From Candidatus Fervidifonticultor primus (GTDB lineage Bacteria; Sysuimicrobiota; Sysuimicrobiia; Sysuimicrobiales; Humicultoraceae): DNA of 64,000 nucleotides. Made by a program: the position numbers and the translations under genes. The DNA lies in NCBI GenBank assembly GCA_031459855.1, contig JAVKHP010000001.1, positions 1,993,078 through 2,057,077 of the forward strand. Direction: 5' to 3'. This document shows positions 12,859 through 60,426 of the stretch, piece by piece; the stretch's first letter is position 1; each line of letters starts with the position of its first letter. The notes beneath the pieces are model-generated. The model searched no databases and was not told where the DNA came from. It saw nothing but the letters and a program-made list of their open reading frames with translations.

Positions 12859-13204
12859 GGCGTCCTCCACTCCGTCAGGTAGTCTGCCCGCGCCGCGCGG
12901 CGCAGGCCAGCCGGCCCCTTTCGTAGCGTCGGCATGTATCGAACGTGTCACGCCGCCCCAACCGGTGCGGTCCGGGACCCAACACGCCCCCGCGGCCCCG
13001 GGCCGCCCGCGTTGTTGGGGTGGAGGCCGTCGCCCTGCGGCGCGGCGGGCCGCCGATGCCGGCGCCGCGCCGGGCTGCCTGGGCACGGGGGATCACCCCC
13101 TCTGCATCGGATGTGCGGGGCCGCCGCCGACCGGGTCCGGCACCTCGTCCCACCGGCACGGCGGTCTGACGGTGCGATCCCCGCGTGGTAGCCGCGTGTG
13201 CGCG

Positions 13205-37139: not shown

Positions 37140-37201
37140 GCGGTGACAGCCGCATAGTGGTGGCGATGGAGCTCGCCAAGCGCCCGGGCGTGCGGGCTGA
37201 T

Positions 37202-37240
37202 AGCTCCTACTGACCGGCAGGTCGGTAGGAGCTTTTTGAT
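37202..37240 (+). terminator. Rho-independent terminator downstream of the FAD-oxidase gene
   Basis: AGCTCCTAC-T-GACC [GGCA] GGTC-G-GTAGGAGCT giving a 14-bp stem (one U-G wobble) followed by TTTTT. Confidence 0.7.
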
Positions 37241-41638: not shown

Positions 41639-42077
41639 GGGTACGCTCCTGTGGGGTAGCGGCACGCGACGGGCGGCCCCTACCCGCGGAATGTGGGTAG
41701 GAGCCATCAGCCCGAAGAGGGCGGTTCAGGCGGGCCCCATCGCCTGGGCTGGATTATAGGTGCTCCCGGGAGAGTGCGTCCAGTCCTCCTGGCCGCAGAG
41801 GCCATCCTCGTCGCAGGGGTCACCGGCATCCGGCCGTACCAGGCCCCGCGGCGACCGTAGCGGCGCATCACCCGCGCCACACCAGGTTGTTACCCAGGGC
41901 TGCAGAGCCGCTGGCAGTAGACTCTGCGCACCTCTCGCGTCCGTATTCGGGATGCTGCGGCGCGCGCATGACGCGGAAAGCGCTCTGGGGGAGAGGCGGT
42001 GTGCATCTTCTGGCCCGGGGGAGATGGCCCTGACCTTACGCCATCAAGTTAGATGGCGGATGGCGCGATTCGCGCGG

Positions 42078-47781: not shown

Positions 47782-47886
47782 CTCTTATCAAGAGTGGGTG
47801 AGGGACGGGCCCGATGACCCCCGGCAACCTGCCGCCGCCGCGGTAAGGTGCCAAGCCCCGCGGAACCCAGTTCCGGCGGATAAGAG
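47782..47886 (+). promoter_or_regulatory. SAM-I (S-box) riboswitch aptamer
   Basis: CTCTTATCAAGAG..GGGTGAGGGAC.GGCCCGATGA..CCCGGCAACC...GGTGCCAA..CCCGCGGAA...GGATAAGAG: P1 pairing and conserved S-box core elements; candidate promoter TTGACG-17-TAGTTT at about 47730-47758. Confidence 0.8.
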
Positions 47887-47891
47887 GGTGG

Positions 47892-47930
47892 AACCCCTCC
47901 AAGCGCAGGAAGTGGAGGGGTTTCTTGTTA
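47892..47930 (+). terminator. Riboswitch expression-platform terminator
   Basis: AACCCCTCCA / TGGAGGGGTT 10-bp stem with 11-nt loop followed by T-rich TCTTGTT, ending just before the thrB-like GTG at 47932. Confidence 0.7.
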
Positions 47931-47931
47931 C

Positions 47932-48852
47932 GTGTGGCAGCGGGAGATGGGCGTGGCGGTTGCGCTGGAACGGGTCACGGTGCACGTGCCGGCGACGGTG
48001 GCGAACCTCGGGCCGGGCTTCGATTGCCTGGGCGCGGCGGTGAACCTGTTCGCCGAGGTCACCCTGGCGCCGGCGTCGACGCCGCGCGTCGAGGTGGCCG
48101 GCGTCGACGTGCCGCAGGACGCCACGAACCTGATCTACCGTAGCGCCCAGGCGGCAGCGGCGGCGGCGGGCTGGCAGGGGGCGTTCGCGCTGCGCGCGCG
48201 CTGGCCGATCCCGCTGCGCAGCGGCTTGGGCAGCAGCGCGGCAGCCATCGTCGGCGGGCTCGTGGCGGCGCACCGGCTGCTGGGCGACGCCCTGGACGCC
48301 CAGACGCTGCTGCGGCTGGCCACCGACCTCGAAGGCCACCCGGACAACGTGGCGGCAGCGCTGTTCGGCGGCGTGGTGGTCGTGGCACGTGACGGATCGG
48401 AGGTGCGGTGGGCGCGCATCGCGCCGGTGCTGCCGCTGGCCGTGGTGCTGGCGGTGCCCGCCCTCGAGATCGAGACCGCCGCAGCGCGGCGGGTGCTGCC
48501 AGCACAGGTCGCGCACGCCGACGCGGTGTTCAACGTGGCGCGCACGGCGCTGGTGGTGACGGCGCTGGCCACCGGGCAGGCGCAGGCCCTGCGGGGCGCC
48601 CTGCGCGACCGGCTGCACCAGCCGTACCGCGCGCCGCTGGTGCCGGGGTTCGCCGCAGTGGTCGCCGCGGCGGAAGACGCAGGCGCCTACGGTGCGGTGC
48701 TCAGCGGCTCGGGGCCTACGGTGGCGGCCCTGACGCCCCCCGCAGCGGCGGGCGCGGTGGGCGCGGCCATGGTGGCGGCGTTCGCGGCAGCCGGCGTGCA
48801 GAGCCGCGCGCTCGAGACGCAGATCGAGTTGCGGGGGGCGCTGGGGGGCTAG
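47932..48852 (+). CDS. thrB: Homoserine kinase (GHMP kinase); possibly MetM-type in a methionine pathway
   Basis: ...VPATVANLGPGFDCLGAAV... and GHMP motif ...RSGLGSSAAAIVGG...; 306 aa. Confidence 0.85.
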   Translation: MWQREMGVAVALERVTVHVPATVANLGPGFDCLGAAVNLFAEVTLAPASTPRVEVAGVDVPQDATNLIYRSAQAAAAAAGWQGAFALRARWPIPLRSGLGSSAAAIVGGLVAAHRLLGDALDAQTLLRLATDLEGHPDNVAAALFGGVVVVARDGSEVRWARIAPVLPLAVVLAVPALEIETAAARRVLPAQVAHADAVFNVARTALVVTALATGQAQALRGALRDRLHQPYRAPLVPGFAAVVAAAEDAGAYGAVLSGSGPTVAALTPPAAAGAVGAAMVAAFAAAGVQSRALETQIELRGALGG

Positions 48853-49132
48853 GCCGACGGCCGGGCACCTGCCGGTGGAGGGGCCCGTGGGTGACCGTGC
48901 AGTGCGCGATGGACTCTGACTGCGCGATCCAGGCGGCCTGGCGGGTCTAGTGAGTGCGACCGGCAGCCGGTGCTGATGCAGTGTGCCGCACGTTCACCGC
49001 GCGCGATCGCGTCGCAGCCCGCGGCGCCTGGACGCACGGGCAAGCCCTGTGGGGCGCGCGGGAAGCCGACGCGTGCGGTGGGAGCCGGCGGGTCGGCTGA
49101 ATGGCACGACGACGGCGTGGGGGAGGCGGGAG

Positions 49133-50359
<1,227 letters not shown>

Positions 50360-50370
50360 GGAGGACGACA

Positions 50371-50655
50371 GTGGCAACGATCCGCATTCCCACGCCCATG
50401 CGGCGGTACACCAATGGCGAGCGTCTGGTGACGGTCGAGGCGTCGACGCTGGCGGCGGCGATCGACGAGCTGGGCCGGCGCTTCCCCGGGCTGCGCGAGC
50501 GCCTGGTGAACGGCGACGGACAGCTGCACCACTTCGTGAACGTCTTCGTCAACGAGCAGGACGTGCGCACGCTGCAGGGCCTCGACACCCCGCTGGACGA
50601 GCGCGCCGAGGTGTCCATCATTCCCGCCATGGCCGGAGGTGCGCCGGCGTGGTAG
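50371..50655 (+). CDS. MoaD/ThiS-family sulfur-carrier protein (CysO-like)
   Basis: ...GQLHHFVNVFVNEQDVRTLQGLDTPLDERAEVSIIPAMAGG-APAW resembles CysO (...LHRFVNIYVNDEDVR...AVAGG) as I recall it; GTG with GAGGAGG upstream; Gly-Gly is followed by four residues. Confidence 0.65.
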   Translation: MATIRIPTPMRRYTNGERLVTVEASTLAAAIDELGRRFPGLRERLVNGDGQLHHFVNVFVNEQDVRTLQGLDTPLDERAEVSIIPAMAGGAPAW

Positions 50656-52739: not shown

Positions 52740-53285
52740 GTGCAGCGGGGAGCGGGCGAGCGACGGAGAGGGGGCGTGCGGCGGGTCCTCCTCTGGGCCC
52801 TGGTACTCGTCGTCGCGGCGGTCGTGCTGTGGTGGACGCAGCTGCGGCCGCGCGAGGCGCGCGTCGAGGTGTTCTTCGTAGGGCCGGCCGACGGCGGCAC
52901 CACACTGGTGCCGGTCGCGCGCAGGGTGTCCGGGCGGCGAGCGGACGAGCTCCTGACGGCAGCGCTCGAGGCCCTGCTGGCCGGGCCCACACCGGAGGAA
53001 CGCGCCCGGGGCCTGGGCACCGAGATCCCCGCGGGCACGCGGCTGCGCGCGCTGCAGCTGCGCGAAGGAGTGGTGGTGGTCGACCTGAGCGGCGAGGTGG
53101 AACGCGGCGGCGGCGCGACCAGCATGCAGGCGCGGCTGTGGCAGCTGGTCTACACCGCCACCCAGCTACCGGATGCCCGGCAGGTCCGGCTCCTCATCGA
53201 CGGGGAGGCGCGACCGGCTCTGGGCGGTGAGGGGCTGGTGATCGATCGGCCCCTCGGGCGTCCGCCCGTGTTCCCCCGGTTCTGA
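52740..53285 (+). CDS. GerMN-domain protein (membrane-anchored)
   Basis: N-terminal anchor ...RRVLLWALVLVVAAVVLWW... then GerMN-like ...LTAALEALLAGPTPEERARGLGTEIPAGTRL...; GTG with GGGAGG 6 nt upstream (alternative GTG at 52776). Confidence 0.6.
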   Translation: MQRGAGERRRGGVRRVLLWALVLVVAAVVLWWTQLRPREARVEVFFVGPADGGTTLVPVARRVSGRRADELLTAALEALLAGPTPEERARGLGTEIPAGTRLRALQLREGVVVVDLSGEVERGGGATSMQARLWQLVYTATQLPDARQVRLLIDGEARPALGGEGLVIDRPLGRPPVFPRF

Positions 53286-53334: not shown

Positions 53335-54657
53335 GTGCCCCGGGCCCTGCGGCGTCTGACATCAATCCGGGCAGGAGACGCGCGGGCTCCGCAGAACGTA
53401 GCGGAGGTCGTCGAGTGTACTACTGGGGAGTCGCCGGTGCCCCGCGAGGTCTTCGCCGAAGAGATCGAGACGTTCCTGGAGCGGCTGGACGCCGTCGCGG
53501 CCGCCCGCGTGGTGGCCAACGACGACGGCGAGATCGAGCGCATCTACGTCACCACGGAGTCGACGCGTGACGACGGCGTCATCCGGCGCGCCATCACCTC
53601 GGCGTTGATCAGCCAGTACGGGTTGCCGGTGGACAGCTGGCGGATCCAGGTGGCTCACCTCGAGCCGCAGCCGTCTCTCGAGCCGATTCCGCCCTGCCAC
53701 CTCGTCCGGCTGGAGGAGACCCTCACCGAAACCCTCGCCCGCGCCGTGGTCGAGTTGCGCTACGAGCGCGAGGGCGGACAGAAGACCGTCACCGGCGCGG
53801 CCCAGGCCCCGCCCGGGCAGGTGCACCGGCTGCGGACGGTGGCGCTGGCCACGCTGGAGGCGCTGCGGCCGCTGGCGGAGCGCGCGGGCTTGCGGCCGAC
53901 GCTGGAGGCGCTGACGCTGACGCCGTTTGGCGGCGCGACCGTGGCGCTGGCGGCGGTGTCGCTGGCCGCCGAGCGCGGCACGGTGCTCACGGTGGGCGCG
54001 GAGACCGTCGAGGCCAGCGAGGCCGAGGCCGTGGTGGCGGCCGTCGTGGACGCCGTCCGCAAGGCGCGGCGGGCGCGTCCGGGCCAGCGCCCGCGGCCCG
54101 ACCGGCGCCAGCAGGTCGAGGGGCTGCGACGGCACTACGAGCGGCTGCTCCGTCCCGAGGGTGCTACCGCTTCTCCCGCGCCCGCGGGCGAGGTGGCGGC
54201 CCAGGCCGGTGGCACGTGGGCGACTGCCGTCACCCTGGAGACGCCGCCAGCCGACCGTCCCGCCAGCCCGCACCCGGAAGAAGAGGAGTCCGCGCGGCCC
54301 TTCCCTGCCCCCGACGACGTCGTCAGTGACCTGCGCGAGATCCGTCCCGAACGTGAGGGAGGTGCAGCCACCGTGATGCGCGAGGAAGCACGGCCCGACG
54401 CCGCACCGGGCAGCCGGGCCACTGTGGGGCGGCTGTCCGTCGAGGACGCGTTCTACCGGCGTCTGGTGCTCTCGGGCGCGCCGGTCCACATTCGCTGCCG
54501 GGACGGCTACGAGATCCCGTCGGCGGTCGTGCGCGAGTACGGCACCTACAGCCTGATCGTCGAGGTCAACGGCGTGCAGGAGCTGCTCTTCAAGCACGGG
54601 ATCATCGCGATCCGGCCCCACGGCCCGCTGCCCTCCGATCCCGACGTCACCGCCTGA
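53335..54657 (+). CDS. Hypothetical 440-aa protein with C-terminal Hfq-like (Sm) domain
   Basis: C-terminal ...[60 protein letters not shown] aligns with Hfq (...QDQFLN...VTVFLLNG...LIYKHAISTFAP); high GC3 through the whole ORF supports one coding unit. N-terminal 350 aa unassigned. Confidence 0.45.
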
Positions 54658-54679: not shown

Positions 54680-56227
54680 GTGCCGGGCGACCGCCTGGAG
54701 GACCTGCGCCGCCGCCGGGAGCGCATTCTCGCCATGGGCGGGCCCGACCGGGTCCGCCGCCAGCACGAGAGCGGCAAGCTCACGGCGCGTGAGCGCCTGG
54801 ACGTGCTGCTGGACCCCGGGTCGTTCGTCGAGCTCGACCCCTTCGTCACCCCGCGCGCCCGCGACTTCGGCCTGGACCGCGTGGAGGCCCCGGCCGACGG
54901 CGTCGTCACCGGGTGGGGCACGATCGACGGCAGGCCGGTGCACGTGTTCTCGCAGGACTTCACGGTGCTGGGCGGCTCGCTGGGCGAGGCGCACGCCGAG
55001 AAGATCTGCAAGGTCATGGACCTGGCCCTGCGCACCGGCACGCCCCTCATCGGGCTGAACGACTCGGGGGGCGCGCGCATCCAGGAAGGCGTGATGAGCC
55101 TGGGTGGGTACGCCGAGATCTTCTGGCGGAACACCCAGGCCAGTGGCGTCATCCCGCAGATCTCGGCCATCATGGGGCCCTGCGCGGGGGGCGCCGTCTA
55201 CTCGCCGGCCATCACCGACTTCGTCGTCATGGTGCGGGGCACGTCGTACATGTTCGTCACCGGGCCGCAGGTCGTGAAGGCCGTGACCCGCGAGGACGTC
55301 TCCTTCGAGGCGCTGGGCGGCGCCGACGTGCACGCCGCCCGCAGCGGCGTGGCGCACTTCGTCGCCGACGACGACGAGGCGGCGCTGGCGGTGATTCGTC
55401 GCCTGCTCGGCTTCCTGCCCTCCAACAACCTCGACGAGCCGCCGCGCCGGCCGTCCGGCGACGACCCGGCGCGGGCCGACCCCGCCCTCGACGATCTGGT
55501 GCCCGAGGACCCTGCCAAGCCCTACGACATGCACGAGGTGATCCGGCGCGTCGTCGACGATGGCGACTTCCTCGAGGTCCACGCGCAGTTCGCGCGCAAC
55601 CTGCTGTGCGGCTTCGCGCGGCTGGCGGGGCGGCCCGTGGGCGTGGTGGCGCAGCAGCCGGCGGTGCTGGCCGGGGTGCTCGACATCGACGCCTCGGTGA
55701 AGGGCGCACGGTTCGTCCGGTTCTGCGACGCGTTCAACCTGCCGCTGGTCACGTTCGTGGACGTCCCCGGCTTCCTGCCGGGCGTGGCGCAGGAGCACGG
55801 CGGCATCATCCGGCACGGGGCCAAGCTGCTCTACGCCTACTGCGAGGCCACGGTGCCCAAGCTGACGGTGATCACCCGCAAGGCCTACGGCGGCGCCTAC
55901 GACGTCATGGCCAGCAAGCACATTCGGGGTGACCTGAACCTCGCCTGGCCCACGGCCGAGATCGCCGTGATGGGGCCCGAGGGCGCCATCGACATCATCT
56001 TCCGCAAAGAGCTGGCCGAAGCCGACGATCCCGACGCGCGGCGGCGCGAGCTGGTCGCCGAGTACCGCGCGCAGTTCGCCACGCCCTACGTGGCGGCCGC
56101 CCGGGGGTACGTCGACGACGTCATCCCGCCGCGCGAGACGCGCCGCCGCCTGATCGCGGCCCTCGAGGTGCTGCACCGCAAGCGGGTCCAGGTGCCCCGC
56201 CGCAAGCACGGCAACATCCCCCTGTGA
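54680..56227 (+). CDS. Acyl-CoA carboxylase carboxyltransferase subunit (propionyl-CoA carboxylase beta-like)
   Basis: 515 aa; ...[30 protein letters not shown]... and ...[23 protein letters not shown]... carboxyltransferase motifs. Confidence 0.9.
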
Positions 56228-56314
56228 GCCGCACCGGCCGGTGCGCCCTGCCGGCTCACCGGCCCGCGGGCGAGGAGTCCCCCCGGCGCAGGTGGAATTC
56301 CTCACCTGACGCCC

Positions 56315-56833
56315 GTGCGAGCGCTTGCGCCCATGACGCTGGAACCCGTCGCTGCTGGCGACCCCCGCTTCCGCGACTGGCTGCGCCGGTACCGCGAGGA
56401 AATCACCGGCGAGCCCCCGCCCGAAGGGTGGCTGGACCGCTACCTGCAGGTGCTCTTCGCCGACCAGGGCACGCGGCGGTTCATCTGGTGGGGCGTGGAC
56501 AACGGGCGCAAGGTGGGCTTCGCGGTGGCGGTCCTCACCCGGCACTGGGCCGACCAGTCGCGCACCGTGGGGCAGATCGGCGAGTTCTTCATCTACCCCG
56601 AGTTTCGCCGCGAGGGCCGGGGACGCAAGCTGGCGCAGGCAGTCATCGACTGGCTGCAGCAGCACGGCGCCGACGAGATCCAGTCGGGCGTCGTGGCCGG
56701 CAACCTGCGCGGCCTGCGCTTCTGGGAAGCCTGCGGGTTCCAGATCGCCCGCTACTCGCTGGTGTACCGGCCGGATCGCCCGCGCGCCCCCGACGAGGAC
56801 GACGAAGACGACGAGGAGCGGGACGACGCGTGA
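56315..56833 (+). CDS. GNAT-family N-acetyltransferase
   Basis: ...IGEFFIYPEFRREGRGRKLAQAVIDWL... acetyl-CoA-binding motif; acidic C-terminal tail. Confidence 0.75.
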   Translation: MRALAPMTLEPVAAGDPRFRDWLRRYREEITGEPPPEGWLDRYLQVLFADQGTRRFIWWGVDNGRKVGFAVAVLTRHWADQSRTVGQIGEFFIYPEFRREGRGRKLAQAVIDWLQQHGADEIQSGVVAGNLRGLRFWEACGFQIARYSLVYRPDRPRAPDEDDEDDEERDDA

Positions 56834-56843
56834 GCGGGGCGCG

Positions 56844-58313
56844 ATGCGGCCCATCCGTCGCCTGCTGATCGCCAACCGGGGAGAGATCGCGGTGCGCGTG
56901 GTTCGCGCGTGCCGCGAGCTGGGGATCGCGCCGCTCGCCGTGTACGCGCCGGTGGATGCCGACGCGCCGCACGTGCGGATGGCCGATGCGGCCCTGCCGT
57001 TGCCCGGCGACGCCCCCGCCGACAGCTACCTGAACCTGTCTCTGCTCGTCGAGCTCGCCCGCCGTGCCGGCGCCGACGCGGTGCACCCGGGCTACGGGTT
57101 CCTGGCCGAGAACCCGGCCTTCGCGGCCGCGTGCGAGGCCGCCGGGCTGGTGTTCGTGGGACCGCCGTCGGCCGTGCTGGCCCGCTGCGGCGACAAGGCC
57201 GCCGCGCGCGCCGCCGCCGCGGCGGCTGGGGTTCCGGTACTGCCGGGGACCGGGCCGGTGACCGACGACGAGGCTGTGCGCGCGGCCGCCGCGCTGGGGT
57301 TCCCGCTGCTCATCAAGGCGGTGGGCGGGGGCGGGGGGAAGGGCATCCACCACGTGGCGGCGCCCGAGGCGCTGCCGGCCGCCCTGCGGCTGGCCCGCGG
57401 CGAGGCGCAGGCAGCCTTCGGCGATCCCCGGGTCTACCTCGAGCGATGGCTGACCGCCCCGCGCCACGTGGAGGTCCAGGTGCTGGCCGATGCTGCGGGC
57501 CACGTCGTGCACCTGGGTGAGCGTGCGTGCTCGGTGCAGCGACGGCACCAGAAGCTGATCGAGGAGGCGCCGGCGCCCGGCGTGGATCCGGCGCTGCGGG
57601 CGGCCCTGGGCGAGGCCGCGGTGGCGGTGGCGCGCGCGCTGGAGTACCGGGGTGCCGGGACCATGGAGTTCCTGCTGGAGGGCGACCGCTTCTACTTCAT
57701 CGAGGTGAACGCCCGCATCCAGGTCGAGCACCCGGTGACCGAGGCGGTGACCGGGTGCGATCTGGTGGCCTGGCAGCTCCGCCTGGCCGGCGGGGAGCCC
57801 CTCGACTTCCAGCAGGCCGACGTGACCTGGCGGGGGGCGGCGCTCGAGTGCCGTATCAGCGCCGAAGACCCCCACGCGCAGTTCCTGCCATCGCTGGGCG
57901 CCATCGACGGGCTGGCCGAGCCCGCGGGGCCCGGCATCCGGGTGGACAGTGGCCTGTGGGTCGGCCAGCGGGTCTCGCGCCACTACGACCCGCTGCTCGC
58001 GAAGGTCGTCGCGTGGGGGCCGAGCCGCGAGGTGGCGCTGGCCCGCATGCGATGTGCCCTGCGCGAGTACTACATCTCGGGAGTCGACACGACGATTCCC
58101 TTTCACCTGTGGGCGTTGGACCAGCCGGCGTTTTGCGCCGGCGTCTACGACGTGCGGTTCGCCGAGCACTGGGACGGCGGTGGCGCGCTCGACGAGACCG
58201 CCGTGCTCGCCGCGGCCGCGTGGTACTCCCGGCGCCTGCGGACGCCGCGGTTGCCCGCCGACGGTGCGGGCGAGCGCTGGGCCGCAACGGCCCGCCTGGA
58301 GGCCCTGCGATGA
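56844..58313 (+). CDS. Biotin carboxylase (acetyl/propionyl-CoA carboxylase alpha-type, ATP-grasp)
   Basis: ...RLLIANRGEIAVRVVRAC..., ...LLIKAVGGGGGKGI..., ...MEFLLEGDRFYFIEVNARIQVEHPVTE... Confidence 0.9.
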   Translation: MRPIRRLLIANRGEIAVRVVRACRELGIAPLAVYAPVDADAPHVRMADAALPLPGDAPADSYLNLSLLVELARRAGADAVHPGYGFLAENPAFAAACEAAGLVFVGPPSAVLARCGDKAAARAAAAAAGVPVLPGTGPVTDDEAVRAAAALGFPLLIKAVGGGGGKGIHHVAAPEALPAALRLARGEAQAAFGDPRVYLERWLTAPRHVEVQVLADAAGHVVHLGERACSVQRRHQKLIEEAPAPGVDPALRAALGEAAVAVARALEYRGAGTMEFLLEGDRFYFIEVNARIQVEHPVTEAVTGCDLVAWQLRLAGGEPLDFQQADVTWRGAALECRISAEDPHAQFLPSLGAIDGLAEPAGPGIRVDSGLWVGQRVSRHYDPLLAKVVAWGPSREVALARMRCALREYYISGVDTTIPFHLWALDQPAFCAGVYDVRFAEHWDGGGALDETAVLAAAAWYSRRLRTPRLPADGAGERWAATARLEALR

Positions 58314-58837
58314 TCCTCGAGGTCGCCCTGGGCGGGCGCCGCCACACGGTGGCCGTGACGGAGGACGCCGATGGCATGGTCGTCGCCTGGGACGGGACCC
58401 GTCGACACGTGCGGCTGGCACCCCTCGTGGGCTCCGAATGGTGGCGGCTGGAGGTCGACGGGCGGCGCTATGATGTGCGCCTTCAGCCTTACGACGATGG
58501 CGTGCGGGTGACGGTGGGCGCGTCGCGGGCCGAGGTGCTCGTGCGGCGGGCGCTGCCGGTACCGTCGCGGCGGGCACGCGACCCCGCGGTGGCCACGGCG
58601 GTCGAGGTGCGTGCGCCGATGCCGGGGCTGGTCGTCGCCACGCCGCTGGCCGCGGGGCAGCCGGTGGCGGCGGGCCAGGCGGTCGTCGTCGTCGAAGCCA
58701 TGAAGATGCAGATGGAGGTACCGGCGCCCGTCTCGGGGCAGGTCGCCGAGGTGCGGGTGCGGCCCGGCCAGGAAGTGACCGGCTCCCAGGTGCTGGTGGT
58801 GCTGCACACGGGGCCGGGCGCCGGGGAGAGCCGATGA
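58310..58837 (+). CDS. Biotin carboxyl carrier protein (biotinyl domain)
   Basis: C-terminal ...[28 protein letters not shown]... biotinyl-lysine motif; ATG overlaps biotin carboxylase stop (ATGA). Confidence 0.8.
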
Positions 58838-60426
58838 GCGACCAGGTCCGGCAGGTGACAACGACCGACGGCATGCCGCTGGCCGTCGTGTACGGCCCCG
58901 ACGACGCGCGCATCGACTACGCCCGCGACCTGGGCGCGCCCGGCCAGTTCCCCTTCACGCGGGGCATCTACCCCACCATGTACCGCGGTCGGCTGTGGAC
59001 GATGCGTCAGTACGCCGGCTACGGCACGGCGGAGGAATCCAACCGCCGCTTCCACTACCTGTTGGACCAGGGTCAGACCGGCCTCTCGATCGCGTTCGAC
59101 CTCCCCACCCAGATGGGCTACGACTCCGACCACCCCCTGGCCGAGCCCGAGGTCGGCAAGGTCGGCGTCGCCATCGACTCCCTGGCCGACATGGAGGTCC
59201 TGCTGGAAGGCATTCCCCTCGACCGGGTGTCGACCTCCATGACCATCAACGCCACGGCGGCGATCCTGCTGGCGATGTACGTGGCCGTGGCGCGCAAACA
59301 GGGCGTGCCACCCGACCGCATCGCCGGGACCACGCAGAACGACATCCTCAAGGAGTACGTCGCCCGCGGCACTTACATCTACCCCCCGGGCCCGTCCCTG
59401 CGCCTGGTCACCGACCTGTGTGCCTACTGCGTGCGCTTCCTGCCCCGCTGGAATCCCATCAGCATCAGCGGCTACCACATCCGGGAGGCTGGCGCCACGG
59501 CCGCGCAGGAGGTGGCTTTCACGCTGGCCAACGGGCTGACCTACTTCCAGGCCGCGGTGGACGCTGGGCTGGACCCCGACGAGATCGGCCCGCGGCTGTC
59601 GTTCTTCTTCGCAGCCCAGATGCCGCTGCTCGAGGAAGTGGCGAAGTTCCGCGCGGCGCGTCGGCTGTGGGCGCGCCTGGTGCGCGAGCGGTTCGCCCCG
59701 GCCGATCTCCGGGCGGCGATGTTGCGGTTCCACACCCAGACCGCCGGTGCAGCCCTGACGGCCCAGCAGCCCGAGAACAACGTGGTCCGGGTGACCGTGC
59801 AGGCGCTGGCCGCGGTGCTGGGCGGGACACAGTCGTTGCACACCAATGCCCGCGACGAGGCGCTGGGCCTTCCCACCGAGGAGGCGGCGCTGCTGGCCCT
59901 GCGCACACAGCAGATCCTGGCCTACGAGACCGACGTGGCGGCCACGGTCGATCCCCTGGCCGGGGCCTACGTGATCGAGCACCTCACCGACGCCATCGAA
60001 CGCCAGGCCCGCGAGCGGATCCGGCAGGTGGAAGCCGCGGGCGGGGTGCTGCGGGCGATCGAGGCGGGGGTGATCCAGCGCGAGATCGCCGAGAGCGCTT
60101 TCCGCGAGGCCCAGGCCATAGAACGGGGGGACAAGGTGGTAGTCGGCGTCAATCGGTTCCAGAGCGCGTCGCCGGTGCGCGTCGCGACGTTGCGCGTCGA
60201 CCCCGCGGTGGTGGCGCGCCAGCAGGCGCGGCTGCGGCAGGTGCGCGCCGGCCGCGACGCCGCCGCGGTCCGGGGGGCCCTGCGCCGCCTGGAGGAGGCG
60301 GCGCGGGGCACTGACAACCTCATGCCCCCCATCCTCGAGGCCGTGGAGGCCTACGCCACCATCGGCGAGCTGTGCGACGTGCTGCGGCGCGTGTTCTCCA
60401 CCTACCGGCCGCCCGTGGTGGTGTGA
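58834..60426 (+). CDS. Methylmalonyl-CoA mutase large (catalytic) subunit, no B12-binding domain
   Basis: ...[61 protein letters not shown]... substrate-binding barrel; 530 aa ends before any DxHxxG B12 domain. Confidence 0.9.

Follow-up and report, generated by a model that had tools for sequence, protein, structure and literature searches.

A 64,000-nucleotide (nt) stretch of contig JAVKHP010000001.1 from Candidatus Fervidifonticultor primus (assembly GCA_031459855.1, positions 1,993,078–2,057,077 of the forward strand; hereafter, the window) carries a plus-strand open reading frame (ORF), at 53335–54657, in which an Hfq-like Sm domain follows a long N-terminal region. Hfq, among the best-studied RNA regulators of bacteria, forms a homohexameric ring that binds U-rich and A-rich RNA and promotes annealing of small RNAs (sRNAs) to mRNAs, and it is regarded as a small, stand-alone ring in which only a disordered C-terminal tail varies. 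Here we report that this fusion is a real, phylum-wide gene of CSP1-3 (Ca. Sysuimicrobiota). Its C-terminal domain is a genuine Hfq homologue, a divergent Hfq-family domain rather than a canonical Hfq, and its N-terminal module (N-module) is, judged by profile similarity, a separate, widespread and uncharacterised protein family, one that became attached to Hfq in a single phylum. A conserved ribosome-binding signal between the two parts suggests that a short Hfq isoform of about 94 amino acids (aa) may be produced from an internal start in the same frame.

The longest ORF at the locus runs from a GTG at 53335 to the stop codon at 54655–54657 and comprises 440 codons plus the stop; its G+C content at third codon positions (GC3) is 0.88 and remains coding-like across the linker. 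Both the length and the coding-like GC3 had been claimed in the original prediction, an earlier note based on the sequence and its list of ORFs. The first 34 codons are probably untranslated, because homologues begin at [MVL]-P-R-E-V-F and because a ribosome-binding site, GGGGAG (53424–53429), lies 7 nt ahead of the GTG at 53437. In all 23 aligned homologues the start region falls at or within a few residues of this motif, which corresponds to residue 35 of the flagged ORF, and residues 1–34 have no homologue coverage in the alignment. The true start is probably GTG 53437, and the conserved coding sequence of the long form (53437–54657; N-module, linker and Hfq domain) would specify a product of 406 aa with about 300 residues before the Sm domain. 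The fusion proposed earlier stands, with an N-terminal part smaller than the 350 residues first assigned to it. Residue numbers below refer to the 406-aa protein. Scanning positions 48–60 kb against Rfam gave no match, no sigma-70-like promoter was found in 52.6–55.0 kb, and the sole terminator-like site is on the minus strand within ligA, away from the fusion gene.

The 406-aa protein is predicted to consist of five parts. Domain 1 (aa 1–75; 53437–53661) adopts a small α-β-β-α-β fold in the predicted structure. Domain 2 (aa 87–209; 53695–54063) contains two β-β-β-α units resembling the allosteric domain of isopropylmalate synthase (IPMS) and citramalate synthase (CMS), and is modelled with a predicted local distance difference test score (pLDDT) of 91–98. 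A conserved basic helix with the pattern DRRxQxExLRxHYxRL (aa 223–238; 54103–54150), defined by conservation together with the model, is found in the fused proteins only. It is followed by a Pro/Ala-rich linker (aa 240–334; 54154–54438) that is predicted to be disordered (pLDDT below 50) and varies greatly in length, always in frame, and by the Hfq-type Sm domain (aa 335–394; 54439–54618), an N-terminal helix and five strands.

A search of 5.8 billion proteins for relatives of the fusion protein returned 141 sequences of 285–473 aa (most of them 355–470 aa) with 42–89% identity, nearly all at about 90% query coverage. A scan with one genome per species yielded 51 loci, almost all from metagenome-assembled genomes (MAGs) of CSP1-3 (Ca. 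Sysuimicrobiota, the phylum described in PMC11604079) or from MAGs deposited as Armatimonadota or as unclassified ‘bacterium’; the CSP1-3 names among them are Fervidifonticultor, Thermofontivivens, Calidihabitans, ANGP1 and ‘Armatimonadetes CSP1-3’. The N-terminal and Hfq-like parts occupy a single unbroken frame in 43 of 44 full-length, species-level loci. Linker length differs by tens of residues between homologues, and all linker indels are multiples of three. The N-terminal part itself is under protein-level constraint, with invariant residues and a confidently predicted fold. Gene order is also retained across the phylum: thrC-like, ThiS-like, ligA, (GerMN gene), fusion gene, pccB, GNAT and biotin carboxylase (accC). 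Some relatives carry the automatic labels ‘RNA chaperone Hfq’, ‘sRNA-binding regulator protein Hfq’ or ‘hypothetical protein’; the Hfq domain has thus already been spotted by software, and the whole architecture is without description so far. Only in the homologue of ANGP1 MAG NP_7 (locus L048, 6422–7481) does a stop interrupt the frame that leads from the N-module into the Hfq domain; a pseudogene, an assembly error or a natural two-gene split could account for it.

The Hfq-matching part comprises the last ~65 residues. Taken as a single sequence, it scores below the curated thresholds: the Pfam Hfq model PF17209 gives 19.2 bits with the whole protein and 23.5 bits with the last 85 aa alone (gathering score 27), TIGR02383 gives 17.4–21.7 bits (cut-off 61.7), and the best match to an Hfq in the Protein Data Bank (PDB) has E = 0.016. 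The family profile, by contrast with the single sequence, retrieves 34 distinct Hfq sequences from the PDB (best E = 2e-6) and nothing else at significance; PF17209 matches all 24 members tested at E ≤ 1 (best 4.4e-9), and some relatives exceed the Pfam threshold. An AlphaFold model based on a 115-member alignment (all structure predictions here are monomer models) has a pLDDT of 96–97 over aa 335–394 and shows the Sm fold, an N-terminal helix followed by a strongly bent five-stranded β-sheet, which superposes on solved Hfq structures with a root mean square deviation of 1.0–1.7 Å at 17–24% identity. The original prediction, which had proposed structure prediction as the check on an Sm fold, held that the last ~70 residues align closely with Hfq; the homology is upheld by the family profile and the predicted structure, whereas the closeness is not, given the single-sequence scores.

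The residues that contact RNA in Hfq are partly kept and partly changed in this domain. The Sm2 motif F385-K386-H387-G388-I389 (54589–54603) is, as had been proposed, the counterpart of the canonical Y-K-H-A-I. Across 115 sequences, F385, K386 and H387 do not vary; YKHA[IV]IS stands in place of FKHGI in four deep-branching homologues. The proximal uridine pocket retains the aromatic residue at position 42 (Y371, at least 90% conserved) and K56/H57 (K386/H387). Elsewhere, hidden Markov model alignments to the Thermotoga maritima and Caulobacter crescentus Hfqs place an invariant Glu (E336) at Q8; the distal-face Y25 is replaced by an invariant Arg (R353) inside an almost invariant 10-residue segment; D40 is replaced by an invariant Gly; and the rim arginines R16/R17/R19 are absent, with V, A or G at these positions and R341 and R342 one helical turn earlier. 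From the residues kept and changed, the proximal RNA site looks usable, and the distal face and rim are, on alignment, remodelled and conserved in a new state. Because RNA-contact positions differ in this way, canonical sRNA–mRNA matchmaking is not assured, and because it departs from the canonical pattern in its curated score, at Q8 and Y25, and in the rim patch, we describe the domain as a divergent rather than a canonical Hfq. When the 64-kb window was searched by tblastn for the Hfq proteins of E. coli, B. subtilis and S. aureus, no second hfq was found, a negative that does not bear on the remainder of the genome; neither ‘hfq’ nor ‘K03666’ occurs in the supplements of the phylum paper (PMC11604079).

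Scans of the N-module and its stand-alone relatives against Pfam, NCBIfam and PHROGs gave nothing significant; in Pfam, the N-terminal part had no match in any of 34 proteins scanned, 24 of them fusion members. The N-module profile likewise found nothing significant among PDB sequences (best, uL22, E = 0.086). Structure comparison points to domain 2 as a relative of the LeuA_dimer domain, a C-terminal appendage of DRE-TIM acyltransferases that binds Leu or Ile at its dimer interface. In a Foldseek search with domain 2, three MtLeuA entries ranked top (E 1.8e-5 to 6e-5), and the domain has the two tandem β-β-β-α units that define LeuA_dimer. We then aligned a 104-sequence N-module alignment with a template built from nine diverse LeuA/CimA regulatory domains (E. 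coli and plasmid records). With hhalign, domain 2 matched this template at a probability of 89.3% (E = 2.1e-6, score 43.5) over 109 columns, the whole domain, in the same register as in the structures, whereas reversed, column-shuffled and block-shuffled control templates scored at most 21.1. The second unit has the pattern G-x-[GA]-x(3)-D-x(2)-E-[AS]-x(3)-A-x(4)-N in the one family as in the other. Remote homology of domain 2 to the IPMS/CMS regulatory domain is therefore likely but not proven, because the template is small (nine sequences), the fused family alone gives no hhalign signal and the N-module has an 8-residue insertion at the loop equivalent to GxGP of LeuA. Neither a hhalign comparison of the N-module with the single E. 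coli LeuA (E = 0.089) nor a phmmer search with the E. coli LeuA regulatory domain alone, which did not recover other PDB LeuAs, was informative in this respect. The regulatory domain of IPMS contains the site for leucine and forms dimers (PMC9860122).

The β-β-β-α unit also resembles the units of the double-stranded RNA-binding domain (dsRBD) and of the ribosomal protein S5 N-domain, which makes a nucleic-acid-binding role of the N-module an alternative. As a separate observation, the second β-β-β-α unit of E. coli LeuA weakly matches the dsRBD-like N-domain of S5 (hGvGlatDivEssaKA against hGlGkskDvsEAiaKA), which hints at a common origin of the IPMS regulatory domain and the S5_N/dsRBD units.

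The N-module is far more widespread than the fusion. When 1.84 billion cluster representatives were searched with a profile of aa 1–241, 1,632 matched at E ≤ 1e-3 and 632 at E ≤ 1e-10. About 20 of the 1,632 are long Hfq fusions; most of the others are stand-alone proteins of 205–260 aa that match both domains. This stand-alone family (~1,600 clusters at 50% identity, ~210 aa) appears uncharacterised: its members have no family assignment or informative name, one being a ‘hypothetical protein’ of Thermoanaerobacterales. The suggestion in the original prediction that the upstream part might be ‘something else’ was right in the sense that the N-module is a protein family of its own. Seven distinct genomic contexts of stand-alone relatives were read (among loci L052–L057 and L059–L062). 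The gene follows hpf in four, with secA–prfB downstream in all four and cold-shock genes nearby in three of them; an HD_5 phosphohydrolase gene and DUF5317 come after it in three, and in one of these hpf again lies upstream; and it precedes SpoIIM in one. The HD_5 partner is HD-GYP-like and carries MASE9. A literature search on the hpf-adjacent stand-alone gene gave nothing relevant and no published function. Since stand-alone relatives are encoded beside hpf and cold-shock genes, this context suggests, by analogy, a link of the N-module to translation or ribosome hibernation.

The linker that joins the N-module to the Sm domain contains a single conserved island, I-R-P-E-x-x-G-G-A (aa 302–310), which reads I-R-P-E-R-E-G-G-A in the window (54340–54366), with near-invariant residues and rare A/T-ending codons. 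The window codons at 54340–54378 are ATC CGT CCC GAA CGT GAG GGA GGT GCA GCC ACC GTG ATG. They hold a putative internal Shine–Dalgarno (SD) sequence, GAGGGAGGTG (54355–54364), formed by GGA at codon 308 and GGT at codon 309, and two candidate in-frame starts, GTG 54373 and ATG 54376 (54373–54378), 10 and 13 nt past the GGAGG core and, like the site as a whole, ~20 codons upstream of the Sm domain. Initiation here would yield a nested short Hfq of 93 aa from the ATG (54376–54657) or 94 aa from the GTG. We aligned the codons of 44 genes to follow GC3 and codon usage along the frame. Per-column GC3 has a mean of 0.84 (standard deviation 0.11), and the two Gly columns, at 0.23, are the lowest of the gene; codons 302–310 form the main low-GC3 cluster, the only other one being at codons 3–8, the true start. 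Gly codons elsewhere in the 44 genes are GGC (45%), GGG (34%), GGA (13%) and GGT (8%). At the linker Gly-Gly, by contrast, GGA occupies codon 308 in 32 of 44 genes and GGT occupies codon 309 in 33 of 44; the GGA GGT pair is present in 26 of 44, whereas it makes up just 1 of the 112 Gly-Gly pairs at other positions of the family's genes and 2 of the 94 that the remaining window genes contain. Flanking codons are free, Ala being spread evenly over all four codons and Arg over five.

GGAGG with an in-frame ATG, GTG or TTG 3–14 nt downstream is found in 32 of 44 genomes; the gap is 7 nt in 17 genomes and 10 nt in another 10. Under synonymous resampling, the number of genomes with GGAGG at the linker site has an expectation of 11.4 and reached a maximum of 21 in 2,000 trials. 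In the deep-branching locus L049 the peptide is KEETEM, yet AAGGAGGAGACCGAG-ATG is kept, and in L042, also deep-branching, the peptide likewise departs from the motif, yet AGAGGAGGCGCCGCG-ATG is kept. Because some members keep either the peptide or the nucleotide signal without the other, the two are separable and both are constrained. The SD and start are conserved beyond what the amino-acid sequence needs, a hallmark of nested isoforms made by internal initiation, and the comparison suggests a nested ~94-aa Hfq isoform. The original prediction had set a novel Hfq fusion against an Hfq made from an internal start. The former is strongly borne out by the 141 homologues, the open frame in 43 of 44 genomes and the constrained, confidently folded N-terminal part; the latter gains comparative support from the conserved SD and in-frame GTG/ATG; and the two are compatible.

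On these grounds we consider it reasonably probable, though by no means certain, that the gene produces two nested proteins from one frame, a 406-aa fusion with a LeuA-like N-module and a short Hfq of ~94 aa. In the long form, the folded N-module would be tethered by ~100 disordered residues to the Hfq-type Sm domain, and the short Hfq would be started at GTG/ATG 54373/54376 after the GGAGGTG. The Sm domains would form a ring like that of Hfq and bind RNA by its proximal face at the least, where the Tyr, Lys and His of the uridine pocket persist. Mixing of short and long subunits in one ring would avoid the crowding of six 300-residue arms, and the few N-modules per ring would be arms that dimerise, sense a ligand or bind a partner, coupling RNA binding to the state of the cell. 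What the comparison shows directly is the fusion, the two folds as modelled, the family relationships and a start signal conserved in its nucleotides; initiation at the internal site, assembly of a ring, its contact with RNA and any ligand are what we infer from these.

This arrangement has parts in common with several known systems. Like the Hfqs of Thermotoga maritima (4y91), Caulobacter crescentus (6gwk) and Bacillus subtilis (3hsb), the domain has the Sm fold, the Sm2 motif, the aromatic residue at position 42 and the Lys/His pocket, and the predicted ~94-aa nested product is of normal Hfq size. In contrast to bacterial Hfq, a stand-alone protein of 70–110 aa, the annotated product has 406 aa, with ~300 extra N-terminal residues that include two folded domains; Q8, Y25 and D40 are changed, the rim arginine patch is absent, scores are below curated thresholds and miaA is not adjacent. 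Known length variants of Hfq carry mostly disordered C-terminal extensions or tandem Sm domains, and a literature search on N-terminally extended Hfq and Hfq isoforms turned up neither a folded N-terminal module nor nested forms. The N-module resembles the IPMS/CMS allosteric domain (LeuA_dimer; PDB 3fig, 1sr9 and 3f6g) in the in-register profile alignment and the shared second-unit pattern; unlike LeuA_dimer, it comes without the TIM-barrel synthase, neither the fusion protein nor the stand-alone family having a catalytic domain, and it has no Pfam match and carries the insertion at the GxGP-equivalent loop. The stand-alone ~210-aa Firmicutes-type proteins encoded between hpf and secA (for example HHU70347.1, Thermoanaerobacterales) are homologous over both N-module domains (profile E values of 1e-30 to 1e-20) and, unlike the fusion, lack the linker and the Hfq domain and lie in the contexts csp-hpf-X-secA-prfB or X-HD_5-DUF5317. 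Nested in-frame isoforms made by internal initiation are known in bacteria from the long and short forms of ClpB, IF2 and CheA; as in these, an in-frame SD and start are present here, and the putative C-terminal product shares an oligomerising domain with the long form.

Several observations weigh against two nested proteins with an RNA-binding ring. Besides the sub-threshold Hfq scores, the changed RNA-contact positions, the missing Pfam match of the N-terminal part and the limits of the LeuA comparison, 12 of 44 genomes, mostly of one subclade, keep the peptide with only GGCGGT or no nearby start; chance alone gives each of these GC-rich genes ~0.9 SD-like sequences followed by an in-frame GTG; the spacing of 10 or 13 nt in the window is above the optimum; the opening of local RNA structure at the internal start is slight and non-significant relative to the gene average; and the lineage is known only from metagenomes. 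The chance rate, the spacing and the lack of a marked opening in the RNA would fit a reading in which only the 406-aa fusion is made and GGAGGT is a relic of the ribosome-binding site of an ancestral separate hfq, a translational pause signal separating the two halves or a side effect of selection for IRPExxGGA, and the subclade that retains IRPE..GGA without a usable signal does indicate that the peptide is under protein-level constraint of its own. Peptide constraint, however, cannot account for the two rarest Gly codons at 26 of 44 sites against ~1–2% elsewhere, and it leaves unexplained the run of A/T-ending codons just upstream; a relic would have decayed synonymously, as the adjacent codons did; and the SD and ATG are retained in members without the peptide motif. 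We therefore hold production of the fusion alone to be a serious but on balance unlikely explanation. Far less credible still, to the point of being negligible, is an artefact in which an assembly or sequencing error merged two adjacent genes, or a pseudogene, with a small hfq as the sole real product. The internal ribosome-binding site and start within the ORF and the in-frame stop of L048 could be read in this way, but 43 of 44 independent assemblies, from different studies, have a single frame with linker indels in multiples of three, GC3 is coding-like all through the linker, and independent gene callers produce proteins of 355–470 aa for nearly all homologues. Because these frames are open despite varying linkers, and the N-terminal part is constrained and confidently folded, a frameshift or mis-assembly, which the original prediction had named as the outcome that would undo it, is excluded by comparison.

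A different objection concerns what the ring would do. The C-terminal domain could have the Hfq fold and be no RNA chaperone, serving instead as a ring-forming oligomerisation device or protein-binding platform for the N-module. The exchanges of Q8 for Glu, Y25 for Arg and D40 for Gly and the loss of the rim arginines fit such a role, and the near-invariance of the remodelled 10-residue distal-face segment suggests a new, specific partner. Cyanobacterial Hfq is a poor RNA binder, and Synechocystis Hfq (3hfo) is among the best structural matches. There is also a precedent in Borrelia FlgV, long annotated as Hfq and in fact a flagellar component (PMC11607428). Against this, the proximal pocket conserves its Tyr (position 42 equivalent) and both Lys and His of F/YKH[GA]I; RNA-binding Hfqs of Thermotoga, Caulobacter, Bacillus and Listeria are the nearest matches in sequence and in structure; and stand-alone N-modules lie beside the RNA- or ribosome-related genes hpf and csp. 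We judge the non-chaperone role improbable. A more specific form of the two-protein arrangement, a metabolite-gated Hfq in which the LeuA-type arms of mixed short/long rings dimerise on a small molecule and thereby switch RNA binding or ring pairing, is speculative and we rate it as quite doubtful. Its ligand would perhaps be a branched-chain amino acid or a related acid, since propionyl-CoA carboxylase and methylmalonyl-CoA mutase genes adjoin; these neighbours might be a metabolite hint, to which we give little weight because the synteny block also has the unrelated ligA and gerM.

The direct neighbours of the fusion gene are a GerMN-domain gene upstream and the propionyl-CoA carboxylase β-subunit gene downstream, so that the reported absence of a miaA–hfq context holds for the adjacent genes. 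The upstream gene (52761–53285) specifies a GerMN (Germane) protein with an N-terminal hydrophobic segment and has the same position in the related locus L049. GerMN domains are typical of spore-formers; CSP1-3/Sysuimicrobiota are not known to sporulate. Downstream, a propionyl-CoA carboxylase-type cluster followed by methylmalonyl-CoA mutase (54680–60426) has genes for a carboxyltransferase, a GNAT acetyltransferase and a biotin carboxylase, with a BT plus biotinyl-carrier protein encoded separately; the GNAT gene between the carboxylase subunits is kept across the phylum in most loci. Only 22 nt separate the end of the fusion gene from the start of the carboxyltransferase gene, and because of this short gap the two may be co-transcribed. 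Farther upstream (47782–50655), a SAM riboswitch (85.7 bits) lies directly 5′ of genes for a GHMP kinase, a threonine-synthase-like pyridoxal phosphate enzyme whose N-terminus is Cys4 zinc ribbon-like, and a ThiS-family protein. These three genes resemble the MetM/MetO route to homocysteine, which uses O-phosphohomoserine and a sulfur-carrier protein, and the gene labelled ‘thrC’ in the earlier note may be a methionine-pathway enzyme. Two fluoride riboswitches, at 41691–41753 (minus strand, 56.8 bits) and 37153–37216 (plus strand, 37.9 bits), lie less than 5 kb apart on opposite strands. At 12923–13016 (minus strand), ARAGORN calls a tRNA-Asn(GTT) of 94 nt, ~20 nt above normal, for which an insertion or a miscall is possible.

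The function of the fusion is a matter of inference, but its interest for RNA biologists lies in what it would add to the notion of Hfq. If the sole hfq-like gene seen at the locus carries a folded, sensor-like N-module, that notion broadens, and a normal-sized Hfq made from the same frame would, if true, broaden it further. Through their association with Hfq, hpf and csp, ~1,600 clusters of uncharacterised ~210-aa Firmicutes-type proteins gain an initial clue to function, and the likely remote homology of domain 2 would extend the IPMS/CMS allosteric domain beyond the enzymes of amino-acid biosynthesis. Were the metabolite-gated form true, two nested proteins in one gene would tie a global RNA chaperone directly, by allostery, to metabolism.

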